Assembly (NCBI GenBank): GCA_016874775.1
Contig: VGTJ01000002.1
Span: 8,700 to 72,699, forward strand
DNA length: 64,000 nt
Origin: Deltaproteobacteria bacterium
GTDB taxonomy: Bacteria > Desulfobacterota > Binatia > Bin18
Direction: 5' to 3'
Below are positions 26,356-53,805 of this stretch, in pieces. Each line of letters starts with the position of its first letter. Position 1 is the stretch's first letter. Under the pieces are notes generated by a model. That model ran no database searches. It was not told where the DNA came from and saw only the letters and a list, made by a program, of their open reading frames with translations. Made by a program: the position numbers and the translations under genes.

Positions 26356-26369
26356 AAGGGGAAGCCACG

Positions 26370-30412: not shown

Positions 30413-30428
30413 AATTTTGTGACGTCTG

Positions 30429-30460
30429 GTATTGGGAGGTGCCGAGGCACCTCCCAATAC
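30429..30460. promoter_or_regulatory. perfect 14-bp inverted repeat (hairpin or operator-like palindrome) in the zwf 5' region
   Basis: GTATTGGGAGGTGC-cgag-GCACCTCCCAATAC has a 14-bp perfect stem and a 4-nt loop, with no U-tract after it. It lies 52 nt upstream of the zwf start. Confidence 0.4.
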
Positions 30461-30511
30461 GCGGCGCCCGGGATACCGTGCTCCGACATGTAAATCATAA
30501 GAGGACATACT

Positions 30512-32113: not shown

Positions 32114-32145
32114 ATCATGCACAGGGAGAGAGCAACGAGGCACGC

Positions 32146-33144: not shown

Positions 33145-33160
33145 AACGGAACCGCTACAC

Positions 33161-35872: not shown

Positions 35873-35917
35873 ACGCGGCTGTGAAGTCTACAGCCTATGG
35901 CTTACTTTTTATAACCT

Positions 35918-36673: not shown

Positions 36674-36721
36674 CACGTACCATGCAGCACAACACACACA
36701 TCACAAGTAAGTGAGGAACCT

Positions 36722-37601: not shown

Positions 37602-39170
37602 ATGCCATTTACTGAATCTGCTGGGCAGCATCGCCCGATATTTTATCATCCCTCTGGTGACACCGCGCGCCAGATTACCCTGAACGCGCGGGAAAAACTG
37701 GATTATTTTACCCGCCTGCCAATCTTTGGCGATGTGCTTGATGAACTTTTTGAAAAGATGCGTCCTGTCCTCATGCCTGACGGTAGCAAACAGCGACGTG
37801 ACATTTACGTCCGGGACGCGCTGGTTGAGAATGCCGATTTCTACGAAGTGCCAGCAGGGACGGTCATCTTTCAGGAGGGAAGCTTCGGCGAGCATCTCTT
37901 CATCGTCCTCAAAGGAACGGTACGCACCAACACCAGCGTCTCGTTAGATAACGAACGTAAAGCAATGGTTCCGCTCGAAGACCTCAAAGACGGGCACTTC
38001 TTTGGTGAGATGTCTGCGCTCTCCATGAATTCCCATCTCATCACGGCTGAGGCGGTGACGCCGACACTGTTGCTCCTGGTGCCGCAGTTTATCGTTCAAG
38101 AACTCGCAAAAACTCAAGATGCGTTCCGTGGCCCGATCATGCAAGAGTATGTACGACGAGCAGTGCTCACCCTGCTTCGTCGTATTCCGATGCTGCGTTT
38201 CACCTCCGACAACGACATCACACGTCTCCTAGAGAAAGTGGAGTTGAAGACGTTTGAAGCTGGCGACATCATCTTTGAAGAAGACGATCCACCAGACGAC
38301 TTGTATGTCATCCATCAAGGGTTCGTCAAAATCTCGAAGCGCGGCGAAGCCCGACAGCGCATTCTCAGCTATCTCAGTGAAGGCGATTGCTTCGGCGAAA
38401 TCGGCGTCCTGAACAATGCCCCACGCGCAGCAAGTGCGACAGCCATGAGCCGTACGGAGTTGCTGGTCGTGCCAGGTCCACAGTTCCAAATACTGGTCAA
38501 TGCCAACCCACAAGCGATCCAGGAAAGTCGCGGCGTTGCCAATCTACGTCGGTTAGATGCCGACATGGCACAAGACGTGACATTTATTGGTGCACGGTTG
38601 CAGTTCAAAGCCGAGGTGATGCCGAACCTGGATGTTCTCGCCATCGATGAAACCCTCTGCGTTCGTTGCGATAACTGCGTAAAGTCGTGTGCCGCCGCTC
38701 ACGATGATGGCATCTCTCGCCTTATTCGTAAGGGAACGATCTTTCAGGAGATGCTGTTACCCACAGCGTGTCGGTTCTGCCAGGATCCCGTGTGCCTCTT
38801 GTGCAAGTCAGGTGGTATCAAACGCGACAAAGACGGAGATATCTACTTCACCGATAGTTGTATTGGTTGCAGCGGGTGTGCGCAACGCTGCCCGTACGGC
38901 AACATTATTATGGTCGACATCGAAGAGTTGGAGCATTTGACACCACCGACCTTAGCGGATCAGCTTTTTCATATCGCTGCCCACAAACGCGGCGAAACCG
39001 TTGGGGCTGAGCAACGCCCACGGTTGAAAAAGGTGCCGGTCAAGTGTGACCTCGATAAGGGCCACCTCTTTCCCGCGTGTGTGAACAACTGCCCAACCCA
39101 AGCCATTCGGCGCTACCGGGCCGATGAACTTGACGTCATCATCACTGGACAACGTAACAAGAAGTCTTAA
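37602..39170 (+). CDS. tandem cyclic-nucleotide-binding (CAP-effector) domains fused to a C-terminal multi-[4Fe-4S] ferredoxin-like domain
   Basis: The first cNMP domain is ...FGEHLFIVLKGTV...GHFFGEMSAL...ITAEAV. The second is DIIFEEDD...GDCFGEIGVLNNAPRAASATA, carrying the FGE...R(S/A)A phosphate-binding cassette. Four Cys clusters follow: CVRCDNCVKSC, CRFCQDPVCLLC, CIGCSGCAQRCP and C...CVNNCP. Confidence 0.75.
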   Translation: MPFTESAGQHRPIFYHPSGDTARQITLNAREKLDYFTRLPIFGDVLDELFEKMRPVLMPDGSKQRRDIYVRDALVENADFYEVPAGTVIFQEGSFGEHLFIVLKGTVRTNTSVSLDNERKAMVPLEDLKDGHFFGEMSALSMNSHLITAEAVTPTLLLLVPQFIVQELAKTQDAFRGPIMQEYVRRAVLTLLRRIPMLRFTSDNDITRLLEKVELKTFEAGDIIFEEDDPPDDLYVIHQGFVKISKRGEARQRILSYLSEGDCFGEIGVLNNAPRAASATAMSRTELLVVPGPQFQILVNANPQAIQESRGVANLRRLDADMAQDVTFIGARLQFKAEVMPNLDVLAIDETLCVRCDNCVKSCAAAHDDGISRLIRKGTIFQEMLLPTACRFCQDPVCLLCKSGGIKRDKDGDIYFTDSCIGCSGCAQRCPYGNIIMVDIEELEHLTPPTLADQLFHIAAHKRGETVGAEQRPRLKKVPVKCDLDKGHLFPACVNNCPTQAIRRYRADELDVIITGQRNKKS

Positions 39171-39193: not shown

Positions 39194-40267
39194 ATGCGGT
39201 CACCCGCACGTTGGTATGTTATCGCTACCATATTAGTAGCTCTGGTCAACATCGCGTATTACGATCACTATACGGCACACTTGGTCGGGCCGCCGTCGGG
39301 CCGCACGTTTGAAGGGCTCGTTCTGGGGAATCTCGGGTTTGCGGCCATGATCGGTGCGCTGCTGTATAGTGTCCGCCGTCGCTTTCTCAGTCGCGCAATG
39401 AACGCGATCCGCGTTGATCCAGATGTACGACGGAAGATTAAAGAAGGCGAGCGCACCGCACTTGAACAGCTGCAAAACTTGCAACGCCAGGTCATGCAGA
39501 ATGCCTCACTGACGGTTTCCGCAGTTCGTCGTCAAGCGAGCGCCATCCTGCGACAAACCGGGATGAAACGTTTTCTCTATGCCCAAGTGGATGCCGGTCC
39601 AGGCGGACGTGGTGTACGGTTGGCCATTGGTCGACGCGAGTGGGGAGGCCGTTTACAGACCTGGTATTACTGGCACTTGATGCTTGGCCTCCTCTCGATC
39701 TTGCTCATTCTGACGCACGCGGGTTTTCGTTTCGGTAATCTGGTCGCCGTCCTCGCTCTCATCTGCCTGATTGGCGTCGTAGCGACAGGGACTTGGGGCT
39801 ACATCATTTATCAACTTGTTCCCACGGCCTTGACCAAGGTGGAAGAACGAGTCGAAAAAACGCCAGAAGAGTTGCGCGATGAGTTACAAGAAGTGACCCA
39901 AGAGTTAGAAACGATTATCCAAGGCAAATCCCAACTGTTCAATGAAATCTATCAACAGGAAACCGCTATCCCTGGGGTGAGTCTCAAGCCATCGTGGCGT
40001 TGGTTGTGGGCACCAGCAGAAATTGCCCGCGATACGACCCGTCCGGATCGTCTACGTCTGATCGTCAAAGAAATTCCCGGCACCGAACAAGAAGATTTCC
40101 GCCAGATGGTGCGGTTACTCTTCCAGAAAGAGAAACTTGAAGTCTCACTTTACCCGCAGTTGCGGTACGACTATCTGCTGAAGATCTGGCTCAGTTTGCA
40201 TATTCCGTTAACCGCTGGGCTGATGATCTTTTCACTCATTCACATTGTCTCGATCCTCTACTACTAA
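39194..40267 (+). CDS. polytopic membrane protein with two H-x13-H transmembrane pairs, candidate di-haem b-type cytochrome
   Basis: Four or five hydrophobic helices are visible. Helix 3 reads WHLMLGLLSILLILTH and helix 5 reads LHIPLTAGLMIFSLIH. Each has His-x13-His, the spacing that ligates two b haems in a four-helix bundle (as in cytochrome b of the bc1 complex). Helix 1 ends with HYTAH. A ~90-aa cytoplasmic coiled region lies between helices. Confidence 0.5.
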   Translation: MRSPARWYVIATILVALVNIAYYDHYTAHLVGPPSGRTFEGLVLGNLGFAAMIGALLYSVRRRFLSRAMNAIRVDPDVRRKIKEGERTALEQLQNLQRQVMQNASLTVSAVRRQASAILRQTGMKRFLYAQVDAGPGGRGVRLAIGRREWGGRLQTWYYWHLMLGLLSILLILTHAGFRFGNLVAVLALICLIGVVATGTWGYIIYQLVPTALTKVEERVEKTPEELRDELQEVTQELETIIQGKSQLFNEIYQQETAIPGVSLKPSWRWLWAPAEIARDTTRPDRLRLIVKEIPGTEQEDFRQMVRLLFQKEKLEVSLYPQLRYDYLLKIWLSLHIPLTAGLMIFSLIHIVSILYY

Positions 40268-40287: not shown

Positions 40288-43200
40288 ATGATCAAGCTCA
40301 CGGTACAGACCGGAACAGAAACAGGGAAAGAGATCTCCCCCTCAAGCGATCCGATTATTCTCGGACGGAGTAGCACCTGTACGGTCGTGCTCCATGATGC
40401 CGCAGTGTCTCGTCGCCATTCCAGCATTGAACGGCGCGGTAACGACTATATCTTGACCGATCTCCAAAGTGGCAACGGGACGTTTGTCAACTCACAAGGA
40501 ACGCGCATTACCGAGCCCTATACGCTGAAAGACGGCGATGAAATCCTCATCGGGAAAAGTCGTATCCGTGTAGACCTGTCGCTGCAGTCGCAGGAAAGTC
40601 CGGGGCCGCGCAACACTGCCAGTGCAGGACAACCCGCGGCTGCGACAGACGAATCCACTCGTATTGCCCAAGCACCGCCACCGGTCAGCCCAACCCCACC
40701 GGTCAGTCCAACGCCGCCGACTGCAACGGACGGTCTCAATGCCGTTCATCAACCAGACGTGCCGATCGTTGTGACTATCGTTGGTGGCCCAAACCGCGGC
40801 ATGGTTTACTCTCCGGCACGAGAGGTTATTTCCATCGGTCGTGCAACAACATGTGACATTGCCGTCAATGACTCTACCGCTTCTCGGGTGCATGCCACGA
40901 TTAAGCGGGAGGCAGGGAAATACCGCCTGTATGATAACAATAGTGTCAATGGTGTGTATTTAAGCACCCCGCAAACTCGCGTCTATCAAACCGACCTCGC
41001 TGATGGAGATACATTTTTCGTTGGCCAGAACCAATTTCGCGTCGAAATCCATCTTACGCATCCCCCTGTATCCTTAGAAGTTGGCAGTGAAGAAGCCATG
41101 CGCATTACTGGAACCGTCGGCGGCAAAAACTTTACTTTCACCCTGAGCGCGCTCAGCGGCGGCACACGAGCAACGCAGATAGTGCCAACCGATGAAGCAA
41201 CTCGCGTTGCGATGGCACAAAGCAGTACCCCACCTCTTGATGAAGCAACCCGTTTTGTTAGGCAACCTGCGGTTCCACCAAAGCAACCGACGAGCGCGGC
41301 TCCGGCTGGTCCTAAAATTTCCCTACGGGTGATCGAAGGAGCAGATCAAGGGACGGTTTTCACTCCTCTTCCTGGTGTGGAACGTTACACCATCGGTCGT
41401 GGCGAACAAGCAACGTTTCGTCTGCAAGATCGCGGAGCATCACGTATTCACTGCGCAATCGAGATTTCCCCCGCTGGGTTTTTCCTAGTCGATGATGGAA
41501 GCCTGAACGGGACGTTTATCGGACAGAACACCGAGCGTATTACTCGTGTGGCTCTCAAGGGCGGCGAAGAAGTCTTGCTGGCAGACACTCGGTTCAAGGT
41601 TGAGATCACCCTTCCTGAAGGTGCCGCAGCCGCCGCTGAGGGTGCCGATGAAAAGACCTCGTATGTTCCCTATCATGCGCCAACTCCACCAGCCGCAACA
41701 CCGGATGCACCAGTACCTGTGGTCGTTGAGCAGCCCGCCACCGAGAATGTCAGGTCACGTTCGGCGGCGTTCAAAGATCGTTTAGCTATTATCGCTCGGC
41801 AAAGTGGAGTGACGTTACGACCGTTCACAGTTCCCGGCACTCCTCGACAGTGGGCCACATTTGCCTTGATGTTGGTTGCAGCCCTGAGTTCGTATGGCTT
41901 CGCGGTGCTCGGACGGTCTGACTATTTTGCCGGTGGTCCAATTTCAGAAAGTCACGCCAAGCTAGAGAACGGCACCTTTGAACAGCGCTGTACAGCGTGC
42001 CATCCCACTTGGGGTCTTCAACCAGTCAATGCCACCTGCGCCGCCACGGACTGTCACGCTGATGTATTGAAAGTGAGAGACGACCGGCGTGACGATTGCG
42101 TCAGTTGTCATACTGAACACCGAGGCCGGACCTTCGCGATCAAAGGCGGAAAAGAGCAATGTTGGAGTTGTCATGAAGCAGGCATGAACGTCCGTGCGTA
42201 TGCCTCACGTCCGATGGGAGTGTATCACACGCAAGTCTTTTCTGTCGCTGAACAGCTGATCCCACAACCCGGAAAAGTGCCGACGCAAGGGATACAACCG
42301 GCAGCACTCTCCACCGCACGAGAGACCTGGCAGAAAGATTTCTCTGCGCAGCCGACTGGGCTCAAGTATGCACACGCTCTCCACAGCGCGCAGGTGTTAG
42401 AGAAAAACAAGAAGCAGGAGCAATGTTTGGATTGCCACGTCAAGTTATTAGACGGGCAGTTTGCGCCATTCCCCACACATGCTCAGTGTATCGATTGTCA
42501 CAAAGAGGTTGCCAACGTCGATCCCCAGATCGCCAAGAAGAGCGCCTCGAAAGATTGTGAGTTGTGCCACACCCAGGCCGACGGGGGTGTGACCCATGTC
42601 GCACGAAATATCAACTACGTCGTCTTTCAGCATAACGATCATGGGCAAATGCGCTGTGTTCAGTGTCATGCGGTTGTGACAAGCGAGACTGAGTATCGCC
42701 CGGTCCTCCGCTCTTCAGCAGCATATCCGATGCCGATGGACGCCTGCTATTCGTGTCATGAAGAGAAGAAAGTAACGATCGCCTGCTTAGATTGCCATCG
42801 ACAACATCACAGTTATCCATCGACGACCGAATTGGCTTGGGGTTGGTTTGGTGGTCTGTCATTGAACGGCGTGCTTCTTTCTATGCTTGGACTCGTAGGT
42901 GCGACCGGTGCCTATATCTACGCAGACATGCGCCTCGCTCGACGATGGCTGGCGTCATTAGAAACGGCTACGCCACCCCCCGCAAACGAAGCGGCACCAG
43001 CAGCAGCAGGACACGACGGGCATGAGGGAGAAGCGGCACCAGCAGCAGCGGCACCAGCAGCGGCGATCCCACCACCTACTCCGAGTAGTGAGGGAGCCCT
43101 GTACCCCTATCCGACAATTGACTCCGACGCCTGTCTGCCATGCGGTACCTGTTATGACTCATGTCCCGGAAAAGTACTGGCACTGTCTCCAGCGACACAC

Positions 43201-44280
43201 AAGGCTGCGGTTGTCACTCCTGGTGCATGTCGGTCACTCACCGAAGGCTGTACCATTTGTCATGAGAACTGCCCGACCGGCGCGATCCGTATCTCGCCTG
43301 TGCCGATCGTCAGAAAATCTGAACGACCGGATATTGACCCCAACAGCGAAAGTCACAATGTTCCGGGCATCTTTTTGGGCGGAGAAATTCTGGGCAACGC
43401 TCTCATCAAAAAGGTCGTCAATCAGGGCGGACAAATTGTTCGTTACATCGATACTCGTAAACCGCGGATTCCTGAAGCCCAGTACGACGTTATCATCGTC
43501 GGTGCTGGTCCTTGTGGACTCGCTGCCGGTCTCGAAGCCAAACAACGTGGTCTTCGGTACGTGGTGCTTGAACGCGAGAGTTTGGCGAATACGATCCAGA
43601 ACTACCCACGAGATAAAGCCGTGCTCGCCGAACCAGTGCAGATGGCAGTCTACGGCTTGTTACCGATGAAAGATGCAACCAAGGAAGACCTCGTCGCACT
43701 GTGGGAAGACATTGTCCGCAAGGAAAGCTTGCACGTGAATACCCACGAAGAGGTCAGCGAAGTCAAGAAGAACGGCAACGTGATAACCGTCACCACGAAT
43801 AAAGGCACCTATCAGACCGGGTATGTGATTCTCGCCTTAGGTGCGCGGGGCAACCCTCGCAAACTCGGTGCAGCGGGTGAGGATCTTCCTAAAGTATCGT
43901 ATAACCTCAACGACCCTGCAGAATGGCAAGGGAAGCACGTGCTGGCCGTCGGTGGCGGTGACAGCGCCATTGAGGCGGCAGTAGCGATCTCCAAACAGCC
44001 AGGGGCCACGGCGACAATCTCGTATAGAAGCGGGGCTTTCTCGCGCGCGGCAGCACGAAACGTCGAAGCCATTAAAGAACAAGAAAAAGCCGGAAAACTG
44101 AAAGTGTTATTGAATTCTAACGTCACAAAAATCGAAGAGAAACGGGTCTCAATCAAAGCAGGGAACGAAGTCCACGAACTCGACAATGACGCCGTGTTTG
44201 TCCTCATCGGTGCTGATCCACCAAAGGCCTGGCTGGAAAAAATGGGGATAAAATACGTGATTGTTGAGAAAACGATCTAA
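40288..44280 (+). CDS. 1330-aa multidomain fusion protein: three FHA domains, TM helix, periplasmic ~10-haem cytochrome c, TM helix, 2x[4Fe-4S] ferredoxin, FAD/NAD(P)-binding pyridine-nucleotide oxidoreductase
   Basis: The three FHA domains are ILGRSSTCTVVL...SRRHSSI...NGTFVN, ISIGRATTCDIAV...SRVHATI...SVNGVYL and YTIGRGEQATFRL...SRIHCAI...SLNGTFIG. Pro-rich linkers join them (PPVSPTPPVSPTPP). TM1 is WATFALMLVAALSSYGFAVLG. Nine CxxCH motifs plus one Cx4CH (CAATDCH) follow. TM2 is GLSLNGVLLSMLGLVGATGAYIYA. Then come CLPCGTCYDSCP plus C...CTICHENCP, then YDVIIVGAGPCGLAAG and VLAVGGGDSAIEAA Rossmann motifs. The reading frame is uninterrupted throughout. Confidence 0.8.
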   Translation: MIKLTVQTGTETGKEISPSSDPIILGRSSTCTVVLHDAAVSRRHSSIERRGNDYILTDLQSGNGTFVNSQGTRITEPYTLKDGDEILIGKSRIRVDLSLQSQESPGPRNTASAGQPAAATDESTRIAQAPPPVSPTPPVSPTPPTATDGLNAVHQPDVPIVVTIVGGPNRGMVYSPAREVISIGRATTCDIAVNDSTASRVHATIKREAGKYRLYDNNSVNGVYLSTPQTRVYQTDLADGDTFFVGQNQFRVEIHLTHPPVSLEVGSEEAMRITGTVGGKNFTFTLSALSGGTRATQIVPTDEATRVAMAQSSTPPLDEATRFVRQPAVPPKQPTSAAPAGPKISLRVIEGADQGTVFTPLPGVERYTIGRGEQATFRLQDRGASRIHCAIEISPAGFFLVDDGSLNGTFIGQNTERITRVALKGGEEVLLADTRFKVEITLPEGAAAAAEGADEKTSYVPYHAPTPPAATPDAPVPVVVEQPATENVRSRSAAFKDRLAIIARQSGVTLRPFTVPGTPRQWATFALMLVAALSSYGFAVLGRSDYFAGGPISESHAKLENGTFEQRCTACHPTWGLQPVNATCAATDCHADVLKVRDDRRDDCVSCHTEHRGRTFAIKGGKEQCWSCHEAGMNVRAYASRPMGVYHTQVFSVAEQLIPQPGKVPTQGIQPAALSTARETWQKDFSAQPTGLKYAHALHSAQVLEKNKKQEQCLDCHVKLLDGQFAPFPTHAQCIDCHKEVANVDPQIAKKSASKDCELCHTQADGGVTHVARNINYVVFQHNDHGQMRCVQCHAVVTSETEYRPVLRSSAAYPMPMDACYSCHEEKKVTIACLDCHRQHHSYPSTTELAWGWFGGLSLNGVLLSMLGLVGATGAYIYADMRLARRWLASLETATPPPANEAAPAAAGHDGHEGEAAPAAAAPAAAIPPPTPSSEGALYPYPTIDSDACLPCGTCYDSCPGKVLALSPATHKAAVVTPGACRSLTEGCTICHENCPTGAIRISPVPIVRKSERPDIDPNSESHNVPGIFLGGEILGNALIKKVVNQGGQIVRYIDTRKPRIPEAQYDVIIVGAGPCGLAAGLEAKQRGLRYVVLERESLANTIQNYPRDKAVLAEPVQMAVYGLLPMKDATKEDLVALWEDIVRKESLHVNTHEEVSEVKKNGNVITVTTNKGTYQTGYVILALGARGNPRKLGAAGEDLPKVSYNLNDPAEWQGKHVLAVGGGDSAIEAAVAISKQPGATATISYRSGAFSRAAARNVEAIKEQEKAGKLKVLLNSNVTKIEEKRVSIKAGNEVHELDNDAVFVLIGADPPKAWLEKMGIKYVIVEKTI

Positions 44281-44929: not shown

Positions 44930-47900
44930 CTATCGCGTGCGAGCAACACGCCCGCCATTACTTTTTTCTAACTTGACTTCTTTCGGTGGCAGGGCAAGAG
45001 TCTTGCCATCTATCGTGTCAACTCGGATGAAGCGGACCACCGCACGGTTCCCTTCGTTGCGGACGCTCACATCCCGGAACGATACACTGTAGCTTTTGTA
45101 CCCCTCCAGGATCCCACGAAGTCTGGTCGCGTCCTGTGCTGAGATTTCGCCGAGCTGCACCAGGGCATCCGTATTTTTGTTTTCCCATGCCGGGCGATAG
45201 ATGGTTTCCAGCCAGTTCATGGCTTCTCTATCACTGGGAGGTCCGGCTTCCTTTGCCCGTTCAGTTTCTTCGCGTTGGACCTTCGCCAATCGTTCCTCTT
45301 CCGCCAGTCTCGCGGCTTCTGCTTTCCGCCGCTCTTCCTCTGCAGCTCTCTGGCGAACGGCCTCTTCTGCTCTGCGCCGTTCCTCTTCCGCTCGTGCAGT
45401 TTTCTCTTGTTCAGCTCTCAAGCGCTCAGCTTCTGCCTTTGCTGCCTTCTCTTGTTCCGCTTTCAACCGATCGGCCTCCGCCTTTGCCGCTTTCTCTTGA
45501 TCCGCCTTGAGCTTTTCAGCTTTGGCTTGTTCGGCTTTCACACGATCGGCTTCCGCTTTTGCCGCCTTTTCTTGTTCAGCTTTGAGTCGTTCCGCCTCGG
45601 CCCGTAGGGTCTTTTCTTGTTCAGCTTTTAGGCGGTCAGCTTCCGCTTTTGCCGCTTTCTCTTGGTCCGCCTTAAGCTTCTCAGCTTTGGCTTGTTCGGC
45701 TTTCACACGATCGGCTTCCGCTTTTGCTGCTTCCGCCTTTCGCCGATCTTCCTCTGCTTTCTGAGCTTTGGCTACTTCTTCAGCTTTGCGGCGATCGTCT
45801 TCTGCCTTTTGGGATTTAGCTACCTCCTCGGCCTTACGACGTTCTTCCTCTGCTTTCAATTGGTCGGCTTTGGCTTGTTCAGCTTTCAGACGCGCCTCTT
45901 CTTCTTGTGCTGCATTCGCTTGGGCGGCCTTTCGGGCTTCTTCCTCCTGCGCCTGCTGAGTCGACGGTTTCTGCGGGTTAACTGACTCTCCTCCTCGGCT
46001 GAAATAAAACCCTAAGGCAGCAACAACGACAAACGCGGCGATACCTGCGACAACTGGCGAAGATTGACGCGCAGGAGAAGGGGCATCCACGGGAACGGGA
46101 CGACTGGTACGCTCGCCTTCCGTTGTTGGCCCCTGATCAAGCAGCGGATGGACTTCTGTTTCTTGCTGCTGCAATGCGGAGAGAAGTGCAGAGGCTTCAT
46201 TATAGCTCGCGAGCGCTTGTGGGTAGCGTTTTTGCTGAAACGACTGATCGCCTGTAGTGATAAACTTCTCAGCTGACTTTTTCTGTTTCCCTTTCGCAGT
46301 CTGCGTTTGTTGTCGCAGCTCGTACGCGCGAGTTCTTGCACCCTCGGCTTCATGCTTTTGCCATGCAACCTCAGACTCTTGGCGAATCTGTTTCCAGCGC
46401 GAAACATTACGGTCAAACTGGTCTCGTGCCGCATCAAACTTTTCGTCGGCAAGCGCCTGCTCTGCCTTATGCAACTCAGACATCGCCTCGACATGTTGAC
46501 CAGGAAGAAATTCTTCACTCCTGACCGCCTGGGCCTCTGCCTGGGCTGCAACGGCCCGTTTCTGCGACTCTGTCGCGGCTTGCTTCGCTCGGGCAAGCCG
46601 GGCAATTCCCAATGCCTGACCAAACAACTCTCCTGCTTGCGCTGAGAGCGTAACCGATTCCTCGAATTGCTTTGCAGCTAACGCAGCCTCCGCCTGCTCT
46701 CGCACTTCCTGTGCTTGTCGATAGAGGTCTGCAGCATATTGTGGAGCATGCACGGCGTCAGCTTCGCGTTGACGTCCTTTCGCTTCTTGATTAGCCAAGA
46801 GGGCACGTTGCTGCTGCTCCTCTACTTCAGCTTCAGCTTGCGCGTACTCATAGATCTGTGCAGCCTGCGCATAATGCGCGCGGGCTTGCTCATACGCCTG
46901 TGCCTGCCACGCTTTCTCACCTTCGGTCTCGGAGGTTTGCGCTTCTTTCCACCGGGCTGCGGCAAAACGAGGAGCTAGGGTGCTGGCCGCTTGTTTTGCC
47001 TGTGCGGCTTGCTGCCGCACAACATCGGCCTCTTCCTGAGCAATTTGTTGCTGCACCGCCTGAACGAGCTTGATAAACTGTTGTTGCGCTTGTTCGTAAT
47101 TCTGGCGGGCTGTAGTGAAGTCATCTTTTTTTTGCGCAGCCTGGCCACGTTCGAAAAGTCCTCGAACCTGAGCAAACTCGCGCGGGAAACGTTGCTCGGC
47201 AGAACTCTGGGTTGCGGCAGATCCTGCTTCTTCTGCACGTTGCAGAGCAGCAAGCATTTCCTGCTTAGCGTACTCATGCTGTGCCGTACCCTTCGCCTGC
47301 ACAAAGAGTTCTTCTGCGTGGCGATACTCACGTGTAGCTTGACTAAATTTTTGCTGTCGTTGGTGGCGACTCGCTTCATCGAGAGCCGCCGCCGCCTGGT
47401 TAAAATCCGTGGCCGCATAGCGTGGGGCATCAACTTCTTCGGCTTGCTTCTTCGCAGTACCAGCCTGTTTTTCTGCCGCAGCGGTTTCTTGTCGGAGTCG
47501 TTCCTGTTCTCCTGCTGTCGCTGCCGTCGTGTATAACTGCGCCGTCTGTGTGTACTGCGCCAGTGCGTTTTCGTAGTCTTGGTCTGAGAACGCTCGCTCG
47601 GCATCGGCTTCTTGCTTCTGCGCGGCCTCCCATTGTGCGTTGGCCCATTGTTTCAGCTCACTCGCGTTCTCTTTCGCCTGCAGCATCTGTTGGCGCGCCG
47701 CTGCAGCGTCTTCGCGTGCAGCCTCAACGTCTGCGTCACGACGAAGACGCAACAGTTGCTGACGAGCCTGTTCGTATAAATCACTCGCTTGGGAGAAGTC
47801 TTGTTGTGTTTCCGCTTGTTGTCCCCGGACAACTACCTGTTGAGCACGAGCAAACTCTTGTGCGAAGCGTGAGTGGACTGCCGCTTCAGTGGCTGCAACC

Positions 47901-50900
47901 TGAGCAGCTTCCAATCGCTGACGCAGGGCAATGACAGCCTGCCGCGCTCTTTCTTGTTGTGCATCGTGCGCAGCTTGTGACCACAGTGACCGTGCTTGTG
48001 CAAACGCTTGGCTGGCATCGTTCCAGTGCTGGGCGTGCATCTGTTGTTCGGCCTGTTGAGCAGTCTGCGCCCCTTGCTGAAAGAGCGCCGTAGCGTACCT
48101 TTCCGCCTCAGCTCGTTGCGCTTCAGCGCGAGCTTCTTCCGCTTGTTGCTGCGCATCGAGTGCGCGGCGTCGCTGCCGCTCGATCTCAGCTGCGTGTCGA
48201 GCCTTCTCGGCCTCTGTTCGCGCTTCTATGTAACGTTGCGTGACGCGATCATACGCTTCTGCTGCTTTCGCATACTGCTGGGCTTCCCAGGCGGCGTTCG
48301 CTTCAGCTTCTGTTCGTTCCGCGTCAGCCCATTTCGCTCCGCGCCATTCAGTGAGCCCCGCCAATCCATTCCTAGATTCAGCCGCACGTTTCCGTGCGGC
48401 TTCCGCCTTTTCCTTCTCAGCTTGCCGAAAGGCTTCGCCCCCAAGACGCTCCCAGAGTTGACGTGCTTGCTGATAGGCCTCGCTTGCCTGAGAGAAATTC
48501 TCTTGCGTTTCCGCTTGGGCCGCTTGCTCAACAAGGTGTGAGGCTTTAGCAAAATCCGTGGCAAAGCGTTGTGCAGCCCCGGACTTCTCGGCAATCTGCC
48601 GTGCTTCCGTTGTACGTTGTCGAGCGCTTACGGCTTCCTGTCTGTGACGTTCCCGTTGCGCATCGTCAGCAGCTTTCGCCAGCAGCTCTGCCGCGCGCCA
48701 ATAGCGTTGAATCGCCGCCCGCAATTCTTTGGTGCGAATCTGTTTTTCAGCGTCGCTCAGTGCAGCAAGCCCATCGCGCCACAACTCAGCAGCGTAACGC
48801 GTTGCTTCGCGTTGTTCAGCGCGCGTTTTTGCAGACTGCGCTTGCTGCTGTGCATCACGGACTTCCTGTTGTAATTGTTCTTGCTCAGCGTTAGTGCGTG
48901 CTTGGGTATAAGCCTTCGCAGCCTGAGTGTAGAGATCCGTAGCACTGCGATATTCTTGCTTCTGGTAGGCCTGGTCCGCACGCTGCACACGTTCACGCGC
49001 CTGCGCCCAGTTCTCCTTAGCCCAGGCCTGCAGGGGCTCACTCCCCTGCACCACTTCTGCCATTTTCTGCCGCGCGGTATCAGCCTGCTCACGGGCAGCA
49101 AGCACGGCACATTCACGCGCGAGTTGTTGAAAGCGCTGGGCGGCCTCTGTATAGCGGTGGCGAGATTCGCGATATTGCTCTCGCTTTTCGTGCTCTTGTC
49201 CCTCGGCAACCAAGCGTTGAATCTGTTGGTAGGAGGAAGCCGCGCGTTCCTTTGCTTCCGCTTGGTCAGCTTGCACTTGGGCTTGTTGCAGCTGTTGCCG
49301 GACTGCAGCAGTAGCCTGTCGATCTTGTTCGGTAGCGGCTTCTTGGGTGGCTTGCTCATAGCGATCGCGCGCCTGCAGATACGCCTGCTTGGCCTTGTCA
49401 TACGCCTTCGCTTGCAACTGCGTGTCACCTTGCTTCTGGAACAAGGTAGCTTGCTGATACAACGGAGAGGCAAGATCGCGCGCCTGCGCGTCTTCAGCTT
49501 GACGCTGTGCTTCTTTGGCTTGTTGTTGGACGGCGACGGTTTCTAACCGTTGCTGTTCATTGACTGCCTCTTGTTGCGCACGCTCATATTTTTGCGCAGC
49601 AGCAAGATATAACTCACGCGCTTGGGTAAATTCTTCATGCGTGATTGCTGCACTTGCCCGTTGTTCTTGATCTGCAGCTTCACGAAAGAGGTTAGCGGCA
49701 AGTCGTGTCGCACCTTGCTCTTCCGCCGCCGCTTTTGCAGCGGTCGCCCGCGCATGCGCTTTCTCTGCTTCGTCTTTTAGGGTCTCACGGTACGCTTGCT
49801 CGCGAGCATCAGCGAAGGAACGTGCAGCTTCACTATAGCCGTGCGCCGCGTGCTGAAAATCACCTTTCTCAAGAAATTCATCAGCTTGCGATTCCAGGGT
49901 GAGGGCACGCGCGTATCGCGTGCGCGCGTGCCCTCGTGCGCCGTAGTGCTCAGCCTCTTCCTTGGCGGCGGCCATGTTACCCCGTGCCTGCTCGGCTTTC
50001 CGTTTGGCTGCTGCGGTTTGCGCTTCTGCGGCTGCCTGGGTGAAGATCTGGATGGCCTCATCGAATGCTTGTTGAGCTGCGGTAAAGTCCTTGTCCCGTA
50101 AGCTCTTCGCACCGTGTCCTTCCGCCGTCATTCCTTGCTGAAGCAAGGTGGCAGCCCATTCTGACGCACCGTCACGAGTCGCGCGTTCGCGTGCCTCACG
50201 CGCTTGCGTCTGGAGCGACAAAATACGACGACGCTCCCGTTCTTCTTCAAGTTTGCGGATCTGGTCTTCGATATCGTCGTCAGCCTGTGCCTCTTGCTTT
50301 TTCTCTTCTTTTTTTCCCAGCCCAGAGAGAATCAGCGTACCGGTGTCTTCTCCATCAGCGCTCAAATTCCGACAGCTCTCTAGCGCTTGCAGTAGTTCCC
50401 GCATGCTGTGGTAGCGATGGGCACGATTTTTCGCGATCGCCCGCGTCAACAGGTCAGCAAACGCGGCAGGCGTTGGGCGATCAAAGTGCGGCTCGTTCTC
50501 TTTGGTATCGTACAAGACCTTGCCCAGCACGGCATGTTCATCGAGCCCGCCGAAGAATTGCCTACCGGTGCACATCTCATACATCACCATACCCAGCGAA
50601 TAGACATCCGCTCCACCGTCAAGCTGCTCATGGCGCAGTTGCTCAGGCGAGGCATATTTCAAGGTCCCGATCACCATGCCGGTCTTGGTGGAATCGCCAT
50701 CGCCCAGTTCCTTGGCGATGCCAAAGTCCATCACCACCACGCGTGACGAATGGTCCTCAATCATGATGTTGGCGGGTTTGATGTCACGATGGATGATCGG
50801 CGGGGTATGGCCGTGGGCATAGCCTAGGGCTTCAGCGACCTGGCGCGAGATACGCAGAATTTCCGGCAGCGGCAACGGGCCTTTTTCACGGATGTATTTT

Positions 50901-51199
50901 CCAAGCGTCACCCCCTCGATGTACTCCATGACAAAGTAGTAGAGGTTCAGAGTCTCATCGCGCTCGATATCAAGGACACGAACGATATTGGGATGGTTAA
51001 GCCGAGCCATGACGCGCGCTTCCCGATAGAAGCGGTTCACCATGTCTTCGTTTTCCATCAAATACGCAGGCAGGACCTTGAGGGCAGAGATGGTGTCGAG
51101 GGCGGTGTGGCGAACTTTATACACCAGCCCCATGCCACCTTGACCCAGTTGGCCAACAACCTCGTACTTGCGGGAAATCACCATCGGCTTAGTTGCCAT
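44930..51199 (-). CDS. giant (2089-aa) Hanks-type Ser/Thr protein kinase: N-terminal kinase domain, a ~1100-aa degenerate helical repeat region, TM helix, a ~300-aa K/E/A-rich TolA-like spacer, C-terminal NTF2-like domain
   Basis: The kinase domain has GQGGMGLVYKV, the K in ALKVL, HRDIKPANIMI, DFGIAKE and GTLKYASPEQ. Repeated W..A..W...Y..A..Y and RFA.EFA blocks follow. The TM helix is VVAGIAAFVVVAALGFYF. Then come KAEQEKAAKAEADRLKAEQ repeats, and then the NTF2-like domain. Confidence 0.9.
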   Translation of the reverse strand: MATKPMVISRKYEVVGQLGQGGMGLVYKVRHTALDTISALKVLPAYLMENEDMVNRFYREARVMARLNHPNIVRVLDIERDETLNLYYFVMEYIEGVTLGKYIREKGPLPLPEILRISRQVAEALGYAHGHTPPIIHRDIKPANIMIEDHSSRVVVMDFGIAKELGDGDSTKTGMVIGTLKYASPEQLRHEQLDGGADVYSLGMVMYEMCTGRQFFGGLDEHAVLGKVLYDTKENEPHFDRPTPAAFADLLTRAIAKNRAHRYHSMRELLQALESCRNLSADGEDTGTLILSGLGKKEEKKQEAQADDDIEDQIRKLEEERERRRILSLQTQAREARERATRDGASEWAATLLQQGMTAEGHGAKSLRDKDFTAAQQAFDEAIQIFTQAAAEAQTAAAKRKAEQARGNMAAAKEEAEHYGARGHARTRYARALTLESQADEFLEKGDFQHAAHGYSEAARSFADAREQAYRETLKDEAEKAHARATAAKAAAEEQGATRLAANLFREAADQEQRASAAITHEEFTQARELYLAAAQKYERAQQEAVNEQQRLETVAVQQQAKEAQRQAEDAQARDLASPLYQQATLFQKQGDTQLQAKAYDKAKQAYLQARDRYEQATQEAATEQDRQATAAVRQQLQQAQVQADQAEAKERAASSYQQIQRLVAEGQEHEKREQYRESRHRYTEAAQRFQQLARECAVLAAREQADTARQKMAEVVQGSEPLQAWAKENWAQARERVQRADQAYQKQEYRSATDLYTQAAKAYTQARTNAEQEQLQQEVRDAQQQAQSAKTRAEQREATRYAAELWRDGLAALSDAEKQIRTKELRAAIQRYWRAAELLAKAADDAQRERHRQEAVSARQRTTEARQIAEKSGAAQRFATDFAKASHLVEQAAQAETQENFSQASEAYQQARQLWERLGGEAFRQAEKEKAEAARKRAAESRNGLAGLTEWRGAKWADAERTEAEANAAWEAQQYAKAAEAYDRVTQRYIEARTEAEKARHAAEIERQRRRALDAQQQAEEARAEAQRAEAERYATALFQQGAQTAQQAEQQMHAQHWNDASQAFAQARSLWSQAAHDAQQERARQAVIALRQRLEAAQVAATEAAVHSRFAQEFARAQQVVVRGQQAETQQDFSQASDLYEQARQQLLRLRRDADVEAAREDAAAARQQMLQAKENASELKQWANAQWEAAQKQEADAERAFSDQDYENALAQYTQTAQLYTTAATAGEQERLRQETAAAEKQAGTAKKQAEEVDAPRYAATDFNQAAAALDEASRHQRQQKFSQATREYRHAEELFVQAKGTAQHEYAKQEMLAALQRAEEAGSAATQSSAEQRFPREFAQVRGLFERGQAAQKKDDFTTARQNYEQAQQQFIKLVQAVQQQIAQEEADVVRQQAAQAKQAASTLAPRFAAARWKEAQTSETEGEKAWQAQAYEQARAHYAQAAQIYEYAQAEAEVEEQQQRALLANQEAKGRQREADAVHAPQYAADLYRQAQEVREQAEAALAAKQFEESVTLSAQAGELFGQALGIARLARAKQAATESQKRAVAAQAEAQAVRSEEFLPGQHVEAMSELHKAEQALADEKFDAARDQFDRNVSRWKQIRQESEVAWQKHEAEGARTRAYELRQQTQTAKGKQKKSAEKFITTGDQSFQQKRYPQALASYNEASALLSALQQQETEVHPLLDQGPTTEGERTSRPVPVDAPSPARQSSPVVAGIAAFVVVAALGFYFSRGGESVNPQKPSTQQAQEEEARKAAQANAAQEEEARLKAEQAKADQLKAEEERRKAEEVAKSQKAEDDRRKAEEVAKAQKAEEDRRKAEAAKAEADRVKAEQAKAEKLKADQEKAAKAEADRLKAEQEKTLRAEAERLKAEQEKAAKAEADRVKAEQAKAEKLKADQEKAAKAEADRLKAEQEKAAKAEAERLRAEQEKTARAEEERRRAEEAVRQRAAEEERRKAEAARLAEEERLAKVQREETERAKEAGPPSDREAMNWLETIYRPAWENKNTDALVQLGEISAQDATRLRGILEGYKSYSVSFRDVSVRNEGNRAVVRFIRVDTIDGKTLALPPKEVKLEKSNGGRVARTR
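45420..45770. repeat. near-identical in-frame tandem DNA repeats (165-bp period with ~82-bp sub-period) inside the kinase gene
   Basis: The unit starting TCAGCTTTGGCTTGTTCGGCTTTCACACGATCGGCTTCCGCTTTTGCCGC at 45516 recurs at 45681 with only 1-2 mismatches. The repeats encode the duplicated ...AKAEADRVKAEQAKAEKLKADQEKAAKAEADRLKAEQEK... segment. Confidence 0.7.
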
Positions 51200-53752: not shown

Positions 53753-53805
53753 ACGATTGCACCTCCAGAGAAGACTCACATTCCCCGCACTCAATCAGAA
53801 CAGCA

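Follow-up and report, generated by a model that had tools for sequence, protein, structure and literature searches.

We analysed a 64,000-nt stretch of DNA (the window) and found that a 1330-residue gene within it, here called the main ORF, is real and conserved. It is the last gene of a three-gene operon, and its product is most likely the largest subunit of an uncharacterised membrane complex; gene order and gene fusions lead us to infer that the three proteins associate physically. For this complex we lean, with some reserve, towards a role as a signal-regulated inner-membrane exporter that would pass electrons from NAD(P)H to the extracytoplasmic side, where we infer the flow direction, the cofactors and the regulation.

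The main ORF is a single conserved gene

40288..44280, + strand: main ORF, one intact ORF of 1330 aa, comprising three FHA domains, a TM helix, a decahaem c segment, a second TM helix, a 2x[4Fe-4S] domain and an FAD/NAD(P)H flavoprotein

The ORF starts with ATG, with AAGGA 11 nt upstream. Pfam searches returned the three FHA domains (E 1.1e-48) and Pyr_redox_3 over residues 1069-1322 (E 1.1e-47); Cytochrome_C7 and Paired_CXXCH_1 were barely over their cut-offs, and Fer4_21 (residues 943-1001, E 1.6e-5) fell under the gathering cut-off. The ORF, the Pfam matches and the motif count bear out the order of modules in one polypeptide proposed by the first-pass annotation.

If the ORF were an assembly or annotation artefact, a frameshift, an overlooked stop codon or a chimeric contig would have joined at least two genes, and Acidobacteriota do carry both halves as separate genes. 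Against this, the identical 1330-aa product is encoded in three independent assemblies (a JGI metagenome contig, the Logan assembly of SRR7053297 and the NCBI MAG contig). The same unbroken architecture was found in 13 full-length homologues from Candidatus Binatia (1285-1337 aa, 47-77% identity), which come from different samples, and further fused forms occur among more distant relatives (P0093, P0094, P0109, P0115 and others). The artefact reading, with a negligible remaining probability, is effectively refuted already: the earlier view of a real gene without a frameshift fusion stands, and the sequence evidence, as far as it reaches, excludes a chimeric assembly or a frameshift. The first-pass annotation knew of no described protein with this architecture, and our literature search likewise found no published description; the architecture is not unique, as Binatia database entries carry it under generic names and many Acidobacteriota encode it in split genes.

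Predicted cofactor-binding and phosphothreonine-reading modules

40357..40554, + strand: FHA domain 1, aa 24-89 (Pfam), conserved G26-R27, S41/R43/H44 and N63-G64
40825..41052, + strand: FHA domain 2, about aa 180-255 (Pfam), invariant G184-R185, S199, H202 and G222
41389..41601, + strand: FHA domain 3, about aa 368-438 (Pfam), invariant G370-R371, S385-R386-x-H388 and N407-G408-T409
41953..42810, + strand: extracytoplasmic decahaem segment, aa 556-841, nine CxxCH and one Cx4CH (Pfam, alignment)
43114..43290, + strand: ferredoxin-like 2x[4Fe-4S] domain, aa 943-1001, C949xxC952xxC955xxxC959P and C981x6C988xxC991xxxC995P
43483..44256, + strand: YpdA/Bdr-like (TrxR-fold) FAD and NAD(P)H flavoprotein, aa 1066-1323 (Pfam, alignment, structure-database match)

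The alignment of 14 full-length proteins (the window protein and its 13 homologues) revealed canonical pThr-binding residues in all three FHA domains. In the linkers, the reported exact duplicate of DEATR is present at residues 302 and 318 and is an instance of a recurring motif, [DE][DE]xT[RS], in close homologues. A duplication reported as two copies of PPVSPTPP is also present, but it consists of overlapping PVSPTP units from an 18-nt tandem repeat (40678-40712) and is not conserved.

All 20 haem-motif cysteines, all 10 proximal histidines and all 8 Fe-S cysteines are invariant across the 14 proteins, in agreement with the ferredoxin-like clusters and the ten haem motifs claimed earlier. 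The latter lie within residues 568-837 and include the atypical Cx4CH (C584-AATD-C589-H590). An eleventh match to the regular expression, C988-TIC-H, lies within the second Fe-S motif and was rejected as a haem site because its histidine is Q in 8 of 13 homologues (H in the other 5). Ten candidate distal haem ligands were found, namely eight further invariant histidines, the invariant M817 and the near-invariant H785. The segment weakly resembles QrcA and the c7-like cytochrome of PDB entry 8k9e.

The flavoprotein domain contains the FAD motif GAGPCG, the NAD(P) motif GGGDSAIEAA and invariant Y1246-R1247 and R1253, a pattern that suggests NADPH as the donor. Among solved structures the best relative is Bdr (7a7b, E 1e-36), a bacillithiol disulfide reductase of the YpdA family, which shares the Y-R motif after GGGxSA and whose depositors reportedly describe NADPH dependence; TrxR-type ferredoxin-NADP reductases also match. 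The label thioredoxin-reductase-like holds for the fold but not for the redox disulfide: the domain has no CxxC, and its sole cysteine, C1076, is replaced by G or A in 8 of 13 homologues, the other 5 retaining it. This bears on whether the protein is a membrane-tethered YpdA/Bdr-like reductase of bacillithiol-type, low-molecular-weight thiol disulfides, with the haem and Fe-S modules as accessories. YpdA/Bdr proteins are the top NCBIfam and PDB matches, JGI labels relatives 'putative YpdA family bacillithiol system oxidoreductase', and C1076 in GAGPCG falls at what we take to be the position of the conserved YpdA cysteine. However, that residue is mostly lost, TIGR04018 scores 182.7 where its cut-off lies at 339.9, and thiol reduction has no use for the Fe-S, b-haem and c-haem modules to which the domain is obligatorily fused or adjacent, which makes such an activity very improbable.

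Membrane topology

41851..41913, + strand: TM helix 1, aa 522-542, WATFALMLVAALSSYGFAVLG (hydropathy, alignment)
42847..42924, + strand: TM helix 2, aa 854-879 (hydropathy), followed on the cytoplasmic side by D-M-R-L-A-R-R-W

Hydropathy analysis identified exactly two TM segments in the main ORF, and no signal peptide was found ahead of the FHA domains. The first helix is unusually conserved, with invariant W522, M528, L529, S534, Y536, G537, F538 and G542. In 14 of 14 homologues, the cytoplasmic flanks carry net positive charge and the periplasmic ones are neutral or acidic, following the positive-inside rule. Stand-alone relatives of the Fe-S/flavoprotein half begin with an uncharged N terminus, a hydrophobic helix and an Arg/Lys cluster, which by sequence is an N-out/C-in anchor and not a Sec or Tat signal; this charge pattern supports a cytoplasmic flavoprotein. 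The split genes of Acidobacteriota agree: there the multihaem half terminates on the outer side of the membrane, and an N-terminal membrane anchor of two hydrophobic segments places the Fe-S and flavin domains of the flavoprotein half inside. The absent signal peptide, the two conserved helices, the charge bias and the split halves together support the in/out/in topology deduced earlier, and the predicted arrangement of the main ORF fits them. Since each half is suitably placed as a separate adjacent gene in Acidobacteriota, their fusion requires no topological rearrangement. The AlphaFold model of residues 490-1330 had a pLDDT of 34.

Neither TM helix of the main ORF contains a histidine or other cofactor ligand; therefore, this polypeptide cannot by itself carry electrons across the membrane, and it probably does not work alone.

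A candidate di-haem b partner in a three-gene operon

37602..39170, + strand: 522-aa protein with two cNMP-binding domains and a HycB-type four-cluster [4Fe-4S] module, 23 nt before the next gene
39194..40267, + strand: 357-aa inner-membrane protein, candidate di-haem b cytochrome, stop codon 20 nt before the main ORF

The gaps within the trio are 23 and 20 nt, and the three genes are neighbours at all homologue loci examined, with identities as low as 47%. The second cNMP domain of the 522-aa protein carries a phosphate-binding cassette resembling that of PKA, GEIGVLNNAPRAAS. The 357-aa protein contains W157x3H161x13H175 (TM3), T198-G-x-x-G202 (TM4) and W332x3H336x13H350 (TM5), and its family is marked by two invariant W-x3-H-x13-H motifs, the four invariant histidines forming two H-x13-H pairs on parallel helices. 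Family members weakly match the Pfam entries DUF4405 (18/20), Ni_hydr_CYTB (9/20) and Ferric_reduct (3/20); the window's own protein is below every Pfam cut-off. The signature is identical to that of the 'conserved inner membrane protein' (IMP) of hypothetical PCC3/PCC4 porin-cytochrome clusters (PMC5566968), and DUF4405 proteins with the same histidine pattern have been shown to bind haem b (PMC11334425). Judging from these motifs and matches, the protein is likely a di-haem b cytochrome and probably completes the trans-membrane wire. It had been overlooked in the first-pass annotation.

Module rearrangements across bacteria

Homologues of the modules do occur as separate genes elsewhere. In about 70 species of Acidobacteriota, adjacent genes encode cNMP-FeS-cyt b, FHA-TM-multihaem and TM-FeS-flavoprotein, and the single polypeptide of Binatia would have arisen through fusion of two of these. 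A search with the Fe-S/flavoprotein half (E<1e-30) returned 646 representative clusters. Among the best 150, whose architectures were taken, this half is joined to the same di-haem b domain (TM-FeS-Flav; e.g. P0164), occurs as cNMP-FeS-Flav-cyt b (P0104, P0182), precedes a TM helix and then 20-34 haems with MtrC-like domains (P0162), or forms TM-haems-TM-FeS-Flav with or without 1-4 FHA domains. Stand-alone TM-FeS-Flav genes of Gammaproteobacteria and Acidobacteria adjoin such an IMP and cytochromes of 6-21 haems.

Signalling and NADPH genes in the neighbourhood

23319..24215, + strand: class III nucleotidyl cyclase with a fused FHA domain, retained close to homologues in L001, L005, L006, L008 and L011
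29360..33144, + strand: oxidative pentose-phosphate genes gnd, zwf and glk, upstream and co-directional with the main ORF
35918-36673: pgl, upstream and co-directional with the main ORF
44930..51199, - strand: 2089-aa Ser/Thr protein kinase, convergent with the main ORF
51215..52000, - strand: PP2C-type protein phosphatase, conserved at homologue loci
52229..53794, - strand: outer-membrane beta-barrel candidate with a weak Phenol_MetA_deg match, retained next to the kinase/phosphatase pair

The kinase comprises an N-terminal catalytic domain, a long helical region, a TM helix (aa 1712-1736) and an extracytoplasmic tail. It lies beside main-ORF homologues in L003, L005, L009, L011 and L013 and about 7 kb away in L006, and it is absent within 10 kb of the homologue in L001. 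The cyclase-FHA protein is the likely source of a cNMP signal. The gnd, zwf, glk and pgl genes are a possible NADPH supply, and the same arrangement recurs in L001, L006, L008 and L009; this synteny is confined to close relatives, 68-71% identical to the window protein, and may reflect a gene order retained by descent.

Direction of electron flow and proposed function

In sulfate reducers, Tmc- and Hmc-type complexes bring electrons in from the periplasm, a precedent for uptake by the window's complex. Its ten-haem domain could take electrons from Fe(II), Mn(II), a reduced shuttle or, via cytochromes, a hydrogenase or formate dehydrogenase, and pass them through the haems c, the b-cytochrome and the Fe-S flavoprotein to NAD(P)+ or another cytoplasmic acceptor. 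The first description of the IMP signature came from PCC3/PCC4 clusters in bacteria that oxidise Fe(II), for which inward flow to the quinone pool was hypothesised (PMC5566968), and a PCC3 IMP gene was upregulated in iron-oxidising Sideroxydans cells. Inward movement, however, opposes the membrane potential, and Fe(II) and most periplasmic donors would have to reduce NAD(P)+ (-320 mV) against a steep potential gradient. The domains of the ORF and its neighbourhood include no visible module for energy coupling, be it a proton channel or a bifurcating flavin pair. The carriers are mostly soil Acidobacteriota (Pyrinomonadaceae) and Binatia, not known iron oxidisers, and NADPH-generating genes are adjacent, so we consider uptake unlikely.

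FHA proteins are usually adaptors, and the density of signalling at this locus is unusual (three FHA domains, the giant kinase, PP2C, cyclase-FHA and cNMP domains). The protein might then be a redox sensor or signalling scaffold, in which the haems sense periplasmic redox state, the flavoprotein monitors the ratio of NAD(P)H to NAD(P)+ and the three FHA domains recruit phosphoproteins, with no bulk electron transfer. Ten haems and at least two Fe-S clusters exceed the needs of a sensor, though, and the Fe-S flavoprotein, di-haem b IMP and multihaem c modules are widespread without any signalling domain and are fused to 20-34-haem wires and MtrC-like domains. This argues for a catalytic electron-transfer core to which signalling was added in two phyla, and a purely sensory role seems doubtful.

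At about -320 mV, NAD(P)H is a stronger reductant than typical haems b and c, and electron export runs with the membrane potential; both would favour outward flow. In the export scheme that we prefer, NAD(P)H, probably NADPH, would reduce FAD in the cytoplasm, and electrons would pass to the fused Fe-S clusters, perhaps also to the four clusters of the cNMP-binding protein, then to the cytoplasmic-side haem b of the 357-aa partner, its outer haem b, the ten c-haems and a periplasmic or extracellular acceptor. The proposed design is NOX-like or MsrQ/Fre-like, with the multihaem outlet as a feature of the window's complex. It is apparently under phosphothreonine and cyclic-nucleotide control: the adjacent giant kinase and PP2C would set a threonine phosphorylation state read by the FHA domains, with the conserved acidic-Thr linker motifs as candidate sites, and cAMP or cGMP from the nearby cyclase-FHA protein would be bound by the cNMP domains. 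Both inputs would control electron flux or assembly of the complex.

The predicted conduit protein is a single conserved polypeptide

The conduit ORF (window 40288-44280, + strand) is one ATG-initiated frame of 1330 codons with a ribosome-binding site, AAGGA, 11 nt upstream. Scans for promoters and terminators in the vicinity of the operon gave only background signal. The identical 1330-aa product is present in three assemblies: a JGI metagenome contig, a Logan assembly from another sequencing run, and an NCBI contig from a MAG that carries the label "Deltaproteobacteria bacterium" (locus tag prefix FJ147). When 5.8 billion proteins were searched, 13 full-length homologues (1285-1337 aa, 47-77% identity) were recovered. 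Their named sources are Candidatus Binatia, and their only database annotations are "NAD(P)-binding domain-containing protein" or "thioredoxin reductase." In the alignment of these 13 proteins with that of the window, from which all conservation figures for the conduit protein were taken (14 full-length sequences), the 20 haem-motif Cys, the 10 proximal His, and the 8 Fe-S Cys are invariant. The first-pass annotation had argued for a real gene rather than a frameshift fusion and had raised the possibility of a chimeric assembly. Because the same ORF lies on three separately assembled contigs and all cofactor ligands are kept in 13 full-length homologues, both frameshift and chimera were set aside, and an assembly or annotation artefact is excluded.

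Three stretches of the conduit protein matched the Pfam FHA family (PF00498; 163.9 bits versus a cut-off of 20.7, E 1.1e-48), in line with the three FHA domains claimed earlier. The phosphothreonine-binding residues are intact in all three and are invariant or nearly so in the 14 sequences.

Phosphothreonine-binding residues of the FHA domains
FHA1: G26-R27, S41/R43/H44, N63-G64
FHA2: G184-R185, S199/H202, G222
FHA3: G370-R371, S385-R386-H388, N407-G408

Similarity to NCBIfam FHA regulators was strong, with FhaB/FipA scoring 151 bits against a cut-off of 125, and with OdhI and TagH.

Two linker repeats had been pointed out. The first, described as two copies of PPVSPTPP, is a genuine duplication, but its units are overlapping PVSPTP strings that arose in the linker between FHA1 and FHA2 through an 18-nt tandem duplication in perfect register (window 40678-40712; 1.9 copies, 94% match). 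The homologues do not have the duplication, which is therefore a recent slippage event, and we rejected the repeat as a functional element. The second, DEATR, is exactly repeated and belongs to a set of acidic Thr motifs, [DE][DE]ATR[IVF], found 2-7 times per protein in the linkers of the clade with at least 68% identity. GarA and OdhI carry self-binding phospho-sites, and by analogy these motifs are candidate phospho-acceptor sites of the same type.

Ten haem motifs lie between two membrane helices

Direct counting located nine CxxCH motifs and one Cx4CH motif (C584-AATD-C589-H590) between residues 568 and 837, all invariant in the alignment, so that the ten-haem segment with one atypical site was recovered as described. 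A Cx4CH site is a typical feature of class III cytochromes. Eight additional invariant His, the invariant M817, and the near-invariant H785 make up ten candidate distal ligands. Pfam matches of the conduit protein were marginally above the cut-off for Cytochrome_C7 (25.2 versus 24.8) and Paired_CXXCH_1 (22.5 versus 20.6) and below it for Cytochrom_CIII (20.1 versus 22.9). Residues 685-838 are weakly similar to the menaquinone reductase cytochrome QrcA (E 1.4e-13), but the protein is not a member of that family (NF041781; 50.8 bits versus an equivalog cut-off of 180). A sequence search of the PDB with the haem segment gave only a weak match, to the c7-like cytochrome 8k9e (E 0.0025). An eleventh haem at C988-TIC-H was rejected, because the string belongs to the second Fe-S motif and its His is variable, being Gln in 8 and His in 5 of the 13 homologues.

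Hydropathy analysis placed exactly two membrane-spanning segments, at residues 522-542 and 854-879, and the N-terminus, which begins with the FHA domains, has no signal peptide. In all 14 sequences, the residues next to both helices carry a net positive charge where they are proposed to face the cytoplasm, and those on the haem side are neutral or acidic. In stand-alone relatives of the C-terminal half, a short uncharged N-terminus is followed by a hydrophobic helix and then an Arg/Lys cluster. This is the charge pattern of an N-out/C-in anchor, suggesting that the Fe-S/flavoprotein module is cytoplasmic with its N-terminus facing the periplasm, so that a haem domain located there could be joined to it. 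The charges come after the hydrophobic helix, not before it, and export of the flavoprotein half by the Tat or Sec route was rejected on that ground. Together, these data support the topology predicted in the first-pass annotation, with the FHA domains inside, the decahaem segment outside, and the Fe-S/flavoprotein half inside.

The first helix is strikingly conserved (W522, M528, L529, S534, Y536, G537, F538, and G542), as would be expected of a helix-helix interface. Neither helix contains a His or another plausible cofactor ligand, and the conduit protein therefore probably needs a partner. An AlphaFold2 model of residues 490-1330, built from a 7-sequence alignment, had a pLDDT of 34 and gave no usable inter-domain geometry.

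An Fe-S module precedes a thioredoxin reductase-fold flavoprotein

The ferredoxin-like Cys clusters claimed for the C-terminal half correspond to two four-Cys motifs ending in CP, C949xxCxxCxxxC959P and C981x6C988xxCxxxC995P, with all eight Cys invariant. The spacing at the first Cys of the second motif is non-canonical. Pfam Fe-S matches fell below the gathering cut-off (Fer4_21, residues 943-1001, 25.4 versus 35; Fer4_7, 20.5 versus 27); the homologous modules of relatives pass it.

The flavoprotein domain matched Pyr_redox_3 (163.2 versus a cut-off of 30; residues 1069-1322, E 1.1e-47) and Pyr_redox_2 (83.1 versus 26.1) and carries the FAD motif GAGPCG and the NAD(P) motif GGGDSA, the glycines of which are invariant. 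Among solved structures, the bacillithiol disulfide reductase Bdr of the YpdA family is its closest relative (7a7b, E 1.2e-36), and the two have in common a Tyr-Arg motif after GGGxSA; R1247 and R1253 are invariant. Bdr is reportedly NADPH-dependent, according to the paper of its structure's depositors. Matches to TrxR-type ferredoxin-NADP reductases were also obtained. The earlier description as thioredoxin reductase-like thus holds for the fold and the FAD/NAD(P) motifs but not for the redox centre: the domain has no CxxC and only one Cys, and it scored 77.9 against a cut-off of 343.45 for low-Mr thioredoxin reductase (TIGR01292). The YpdA/Bdr family model TIGR04018 gave 182.7 against 339.9. 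Of the 13 homologues, 8 have Gly or Ala at the position of the single Cys, C1076 of the GxGPCG motif. Together with the missing CxxC, this argues that the flavoprotein is not a disulfide reductase.

Two upstream genes encode a cNMP-Fe-S protein and a putative di-haem cytochrome b

The conduit ORF is the last gene of a tight three-gene array with gaps of 23 and 20 nt.

Genes upstream of the conduit ORF
37602-39170: cNMP-Fe-S protein; two cNMP-binding domains, then 16 Cys as in four-cluster HycB-type ferredoxins
39194-40267: inner membrane protein (IMP); 357-aa membrane protein with no Pfam assignment

The second cNMP domain of the 37602-39170 product has a PKA-like cassette, GEIGVLNNAPRAAS. An AlphaFold2 model and a hydropathy plot both gave the IMP five long hydrophobic helices. 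W157/H161/H175 on TM3 and W332/H336/H350 on TM5 form two W-x3-H-x13-H motifs that are invariant in 20 sequences, and H161/H175 and H336/H350 are the only invariant His among these homologues, which range down to 29% identity. TM4 carries T198-G199-x-x-G202, with both Gly invariant and Thr in place of Ser in most members. The IMP scored below the Pfam cut-offs for DUF4405 (PF14358; 15.0 versus 26.7) and Ferric_reduct (PF01794). Weak matches extend across the family, to DUF4405 in 18 of 20 sequences (best 5.3e-6), to cytochrome b561 in 9, and to ferric reductase in 3. The protein is also homologous to Gammaproteobacterial IMPs encoded beside 20-21-haem cytochromes (E 3e-12).

For the hypothetical porin-cytochrome clusters PCC3 and PCC4, He et al. 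(2017; PMC5566968) proposed that the "conserved inner membrane protein" holds two b-haems and has quinone as its partner. The same study reported this IMP signature in "multihaem cytochrome + IMP + redox protein" clusters of Fe(II)-oxidiser genomes, the "other redox protein" of the clusters being 412-425 aa long. DUF4405 proteins with the same four-His arrangement have been purified and bind haem b (PMC11334425). We therefore regard the 357-aa IMP as a putative di-haem b cytochrome, and the conduit protein probably does not work alone.

Relatives occur in fused and split forms

An exhaustive profile search with residues 500-1330 retrieved 646 representative clusters at E<1e-30, the best 150 of which were classified by a domain and motif scan and spot-checked with Pfam. 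The commonest form among these best 150 is a protein of ~440 aa consisting of the membrane helix, the ferredoxin, and the flavoprotein alone (TM-FeS-Flav).

Fused forms among the relatives, with representative proteins
TM-FeS-Flav plus a membrane domain homologous to the 357-aa IMP, both hydrophobic H-x13-H kept: P0164, P0149, P0188, and others
cNMP-FeS-Flav-membrane domain: P0104, P0182
TM-FeS-Flav-TM followed by 20-34 haem motifs, single polypeptides with similarity to MtrC/MtrF domain II/IV: P0162, P0147, P0113, P0124
TM-haems-TM-FeS-Flav without FHA: P0092, P0100
TM-haems-TM-FeS-Flav with 1-4 FHA: P0093, P0094, P0109, P0115, and others

When one genome per species was scanned for the layout of the locus, the gene order of the window was found in seven Binatia-type loci. 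About 70 Acidobacteriota species (Pyrinomonadaceae, Blastocatellia, and Chloracidobacterium) have the same modules partitioned differently, as cNMPx2-4x[4Fe-4S]-cytochrome b (~825 aa), FHA-TM-seven haems (~500 aa), and TM-FeS-Flav (~520 aa). Locus L028, on a complete Acidobacteriota chromosome, has two tandem copies of this three-gene set (7370-13102 and 13702-19479). Compared with this partition, the second and third genes are fused in the conduit ORF, and the first is split into the two upstream genes of the window. The modules thus do occur as separate genes elsewhere, a check that had been proposed with the original annotation, both in this split set and as stand-alone TM-FeS-Flav. In Gammaproteobacteria and Acidobacteria, the stand-alone genes adjoin IMPs of 290-320 aa and cytochromes with 6-21 haems. 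These separate fusions and neighbourhoods strongly indicate that four components make up one functional unit: the Fe-S flavoprotein, the putative di-haem b protein, the cNMP-Fe-S protein, and the multihaem cytochrome c.

Two large proteins without a Pfam match are encoded beside the Gammaproteobacterial and Acidobacterial clusters of stand-alone flavoprotein, IMP, and multihaem genes, at loci L090 (842-3172, - strand; 776 aa) and L091 (2520-4172, + strand; 550 aa). One of them ends in an aromatic residue, as in outer-membrane barrels, and both are possible porins of PCC3-like conduits.

The gene neighbourhood is conserved

The conduit ORF and the genes for the cNMP-Fe-S protein and the IMP lie side by side and run in the same direction at all homologue loci examined. 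Convergent downstream genes for a Ser/Thr kinase (2063-2221 aa), a PP2C phosphatase, and a barrel candidate are found in the window and at loci L003, L005/L011, L009, and L013. The ORF for the candidate outer-membrane barrel encodes 521 aa, matches Phenol_MetA_deg weakly, and is kept beside the kinase/PP2C pair. A nucleotidyl cyclase-FHA fusion is encoded nearby in the window and at L001, L005, L006, L008, and L011.

The oxidative pentose-phosphate genes gnd, zwf, glk, and pgl lie directly upstream in the window and at L001, L006, L008, and L009. In the window, they belong, with a HAD phosphatase gene, to a long co-directional sugar-phosphate cluster (24527-37492, + strand) that ends 109 nt before the redox operon.

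Further members of the sugar-phosphate cluster
24527-26355, + strand: split transketolase
26370-29240, + strand: transaldolase-phosphoglucose isomerase fusion, 956 aa
33161-35872, + strand: GH63/MGH1-like glycoside hydrolase, 903 aa

Several other features of the window were recorded. Just downstream of the conduit gene, a 165-aa ORF with a signal peptide-like N-terminus (44422-44919, + strand), also present at L009, L087, and L088, is weakly similar to the giant kinase's extracytoplasmic C-terminal domain (pairwise, 32% over 66 aa, E 5e-4). The kinase itself (44930-51199, - strand; 2089 aa) contains ~1400 aa of Ala/Gln/Glu/Arg-rich helical sequence and one TM helix (aa 1712-1736); 45-48-nt tandem units at 45401-45857 encode KAEQ/EERRKAEE repeats in its extracytoplasmic, coiled-coil-like region. 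A second decahaem cytochrome c, 14 kb downstream (58880-60160, + strand; 426 aa, 10 CxxCH), has c3/c7-type Pfam matches and a weak MtrC-like match and is a possible periplasmic partner of the conduit. It is followed by a gene for a 581-aa protein with an HbpS-like haem-degrading domain (60277-62022, + strand). Three copies of the Acido-Lenti-1 RNA motif (RF01687; 40-51 bits versus a gathering score of 37) occupy 18813-19016 on alternating strands; they lie in intergenic DNA flanked by genes for a Na+/H+ exchanger-Usp protein and a luciferase-like monooxygenase.

Discussion

Judged by the published signature (five TM helices, [S/T]GxxG on TM4, and W-x3-H-x13-H on TM3 and TM5; PMC5566968), the window's IMP resembles those of PCC3/PCC4. 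Like them, it is associated with multihaem cytochromes c and has a candidate outer-membrane barrel kept nearby; an Fe-S gene of the Fer4_11 type upstream of the IMP is a further likeness, to PCC4 subgroup II. Unlike in PCC3/PCC4, the multihaem cytochrome is held in the membrane and shares its polypeptide with FHA domains and an Fe-S flavoprotein, the cluster has no large extracellular cytochrome, and the carriers are Binatia and Acidobacteriota instead of Proteobacteria. The fusions described here also indicate an NAD(P)H flavoprotein as the partner of the IMP, in place of the quinone proposed for PCC3/PCC4.

The predicted order, from a cytoplasmic NAD(P)H flavoprotein through two stacked b-haems (His pairs on TM3 and TM5) to the outside, is that of NOX/FRE and MsrQ-Fre, and natural fusions of flavoprotein and b-haem domains occur in the window's family (P0164 and P0182). 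Eukaryotic NOX enzymes are also under phosphorylation control. The dehydrogenase differs, being a TrxR-fold protein with a 2x[4Fe-4S] ferredoxin and not of the FNR type (FAD_binding_8/NAD_binding_6). The membrane domain has five helices instead of six and scores below the Ferric_reduct cut-off, and the outlet is a ten-haem c wire instead of O2, Fe(III), or MsrP. With the Tmc/Hmc/Qrc complexes of sulfate reducers and ActA of alternative complex III, the system shares a periplasmic c3/c7-type multihaem module combined with membrane and cytoplasmic Fe-S subunits. It differs from them in having no HdrD/CCG-type or NrfD-type subunit, in its NAD(P)H flavoprotein as the cytoplasmic end, and in carrying periplasmic and cytoplasmic modules on one polypeptide. 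The flavoprotein has the two-Rossmann-domain fold and the FAD/NAD(P)H motifs of YpdA/Bdr and TrxR-type ferredoxin-NADP+ reductases but, unlike these enzymes, always follows a membrane anchor and a ferredoxin domain. As with the regulators GarA/OdhI, FhaA/FhaB, and TagH, the FHA domains are canonical and kinase and PP2C genes are adjacent; the difference is that here a redox enzyme itself carries the three FHA domains. The literature searched offered no example of an electron-transfer protein with an FHA domain.

From the observed domain content, ligand conservation, gene linkage, and fusions, we infer an electron path in which FAD would be reduced by NAD(P)H and electrons would pass through the fused 2x[4Fe-4S] module, possibly also through the four clusters of the cNMP protein, before crossing the membrane via two b-haems and entering the ten-haem c wire. 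Candidate acceptors are the second decahaem cytochrome, the outer-membrane barrel, metals, quinone-like shuttles, and O2. The locus also encodes four FHA domains, three on the conduit and one on the cyclase, as well as a giant kinase that spans the membrane, a PP2C phosphatase, and the two cNMP domains of the Fe-S subunit, and their presence together suggests that phosphorylation and cAMP/cGMP may gate the assembly or flux of the conduit. Most relatives of the core are without these signalling parts, which are thus accessory.

Three points favour outward flow: NAD(P)H is the most reducing component of the chain, the membrane potential would assist export, and genes that generate NADPH lie next to the operon. 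Inward electron uptake has been proposed for the PCC3/PCC4 IMPs of iron oxidisers (PMC5566968); with NAD(P) at the cytoplasmic end and no coupling module, it would be energetically adverse here, and we consider it thermodynamically unfavourable. A protein that serves purely as a sensor or scaffold is hard to reconcile with a core that is widespread without signalling domains and fused to wires of 20-34 haems. A YpdA-like thiol reductase, to which the Bdr match might point, is rejected on the TIGR04018 score and for want of a conserved Cys. A more far-reaching reading is tentative, and we hold it to be possible rather than probable: an NADPH-driven exporter, running from Fe-S flavoprotein to di-haem b to decahaem c and switched in its assembly or flux by phosphothreonine bound to its own FHA domains and by cAMP/cGMP on the Fe-S subunit, would be the first conduit gated directly by cell signalling, and the long-sought cytoplasmic partner of PCC3/PCC4-type IMPs would be an NAD(P)H flavoprotein, not the quinone pool.

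The literature searched held no description of this architecture (combinations of FHA, multihaem, 4Fe-4S, and YpdA-TrxR), as had been surmised from the sequence, the only related description being that of the PCC3/PCC4 IMP. The flavoprotein and IMP families have generic database names only, and neither these names nor the literature yielded a characterised member. All of the domains are known, and the design of dehydrogenase, di-haem b, and extracytoplasmic acceptor is the principle of NOX/FRE, MsrQ-Fre, and Tmc/Hmc. What is new is, first, the type of dehydrogenase, a TrxR-fold flavoprotein with a ferredoxin domain; second, that this dehydrogenase is covalently joined, across the membrane, to a multihaem c wire; and third, the placement of FHA and cNMP sensor domains directly on redox subunits.

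In many extracellular electron-transfer pathways, PCC3/PCC4 included, the crossing of the inner membrane is the step understood least, and PCC3/PCC4 clusters serve as marker genes for iron cycling. The fusions offer a testable answer to how PCC-type conduits are linked to cytoplasmic metabolism: they tie a widespread cytochrome b family to a widespread, unnamed family of NAD(P)H Fe-S flavoproteins, in a testable wiring diagram that bypasses the quinone pool. The FHA and cNMP domains on redox subunits suggest that electron export may be switched post-translationally by a kinase and a second messenger, which to our knowledge is undescribed for bacterial respiratory or extracellular electron-transfer proteins. 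Binatia and Pyrinomonadaceae are abundant, mostly uncultured bacteria of soils and sediments, and in these hosts the system could be relevant to redox balance, to the reduction of metals, or to the production of superoxide outside the cell.
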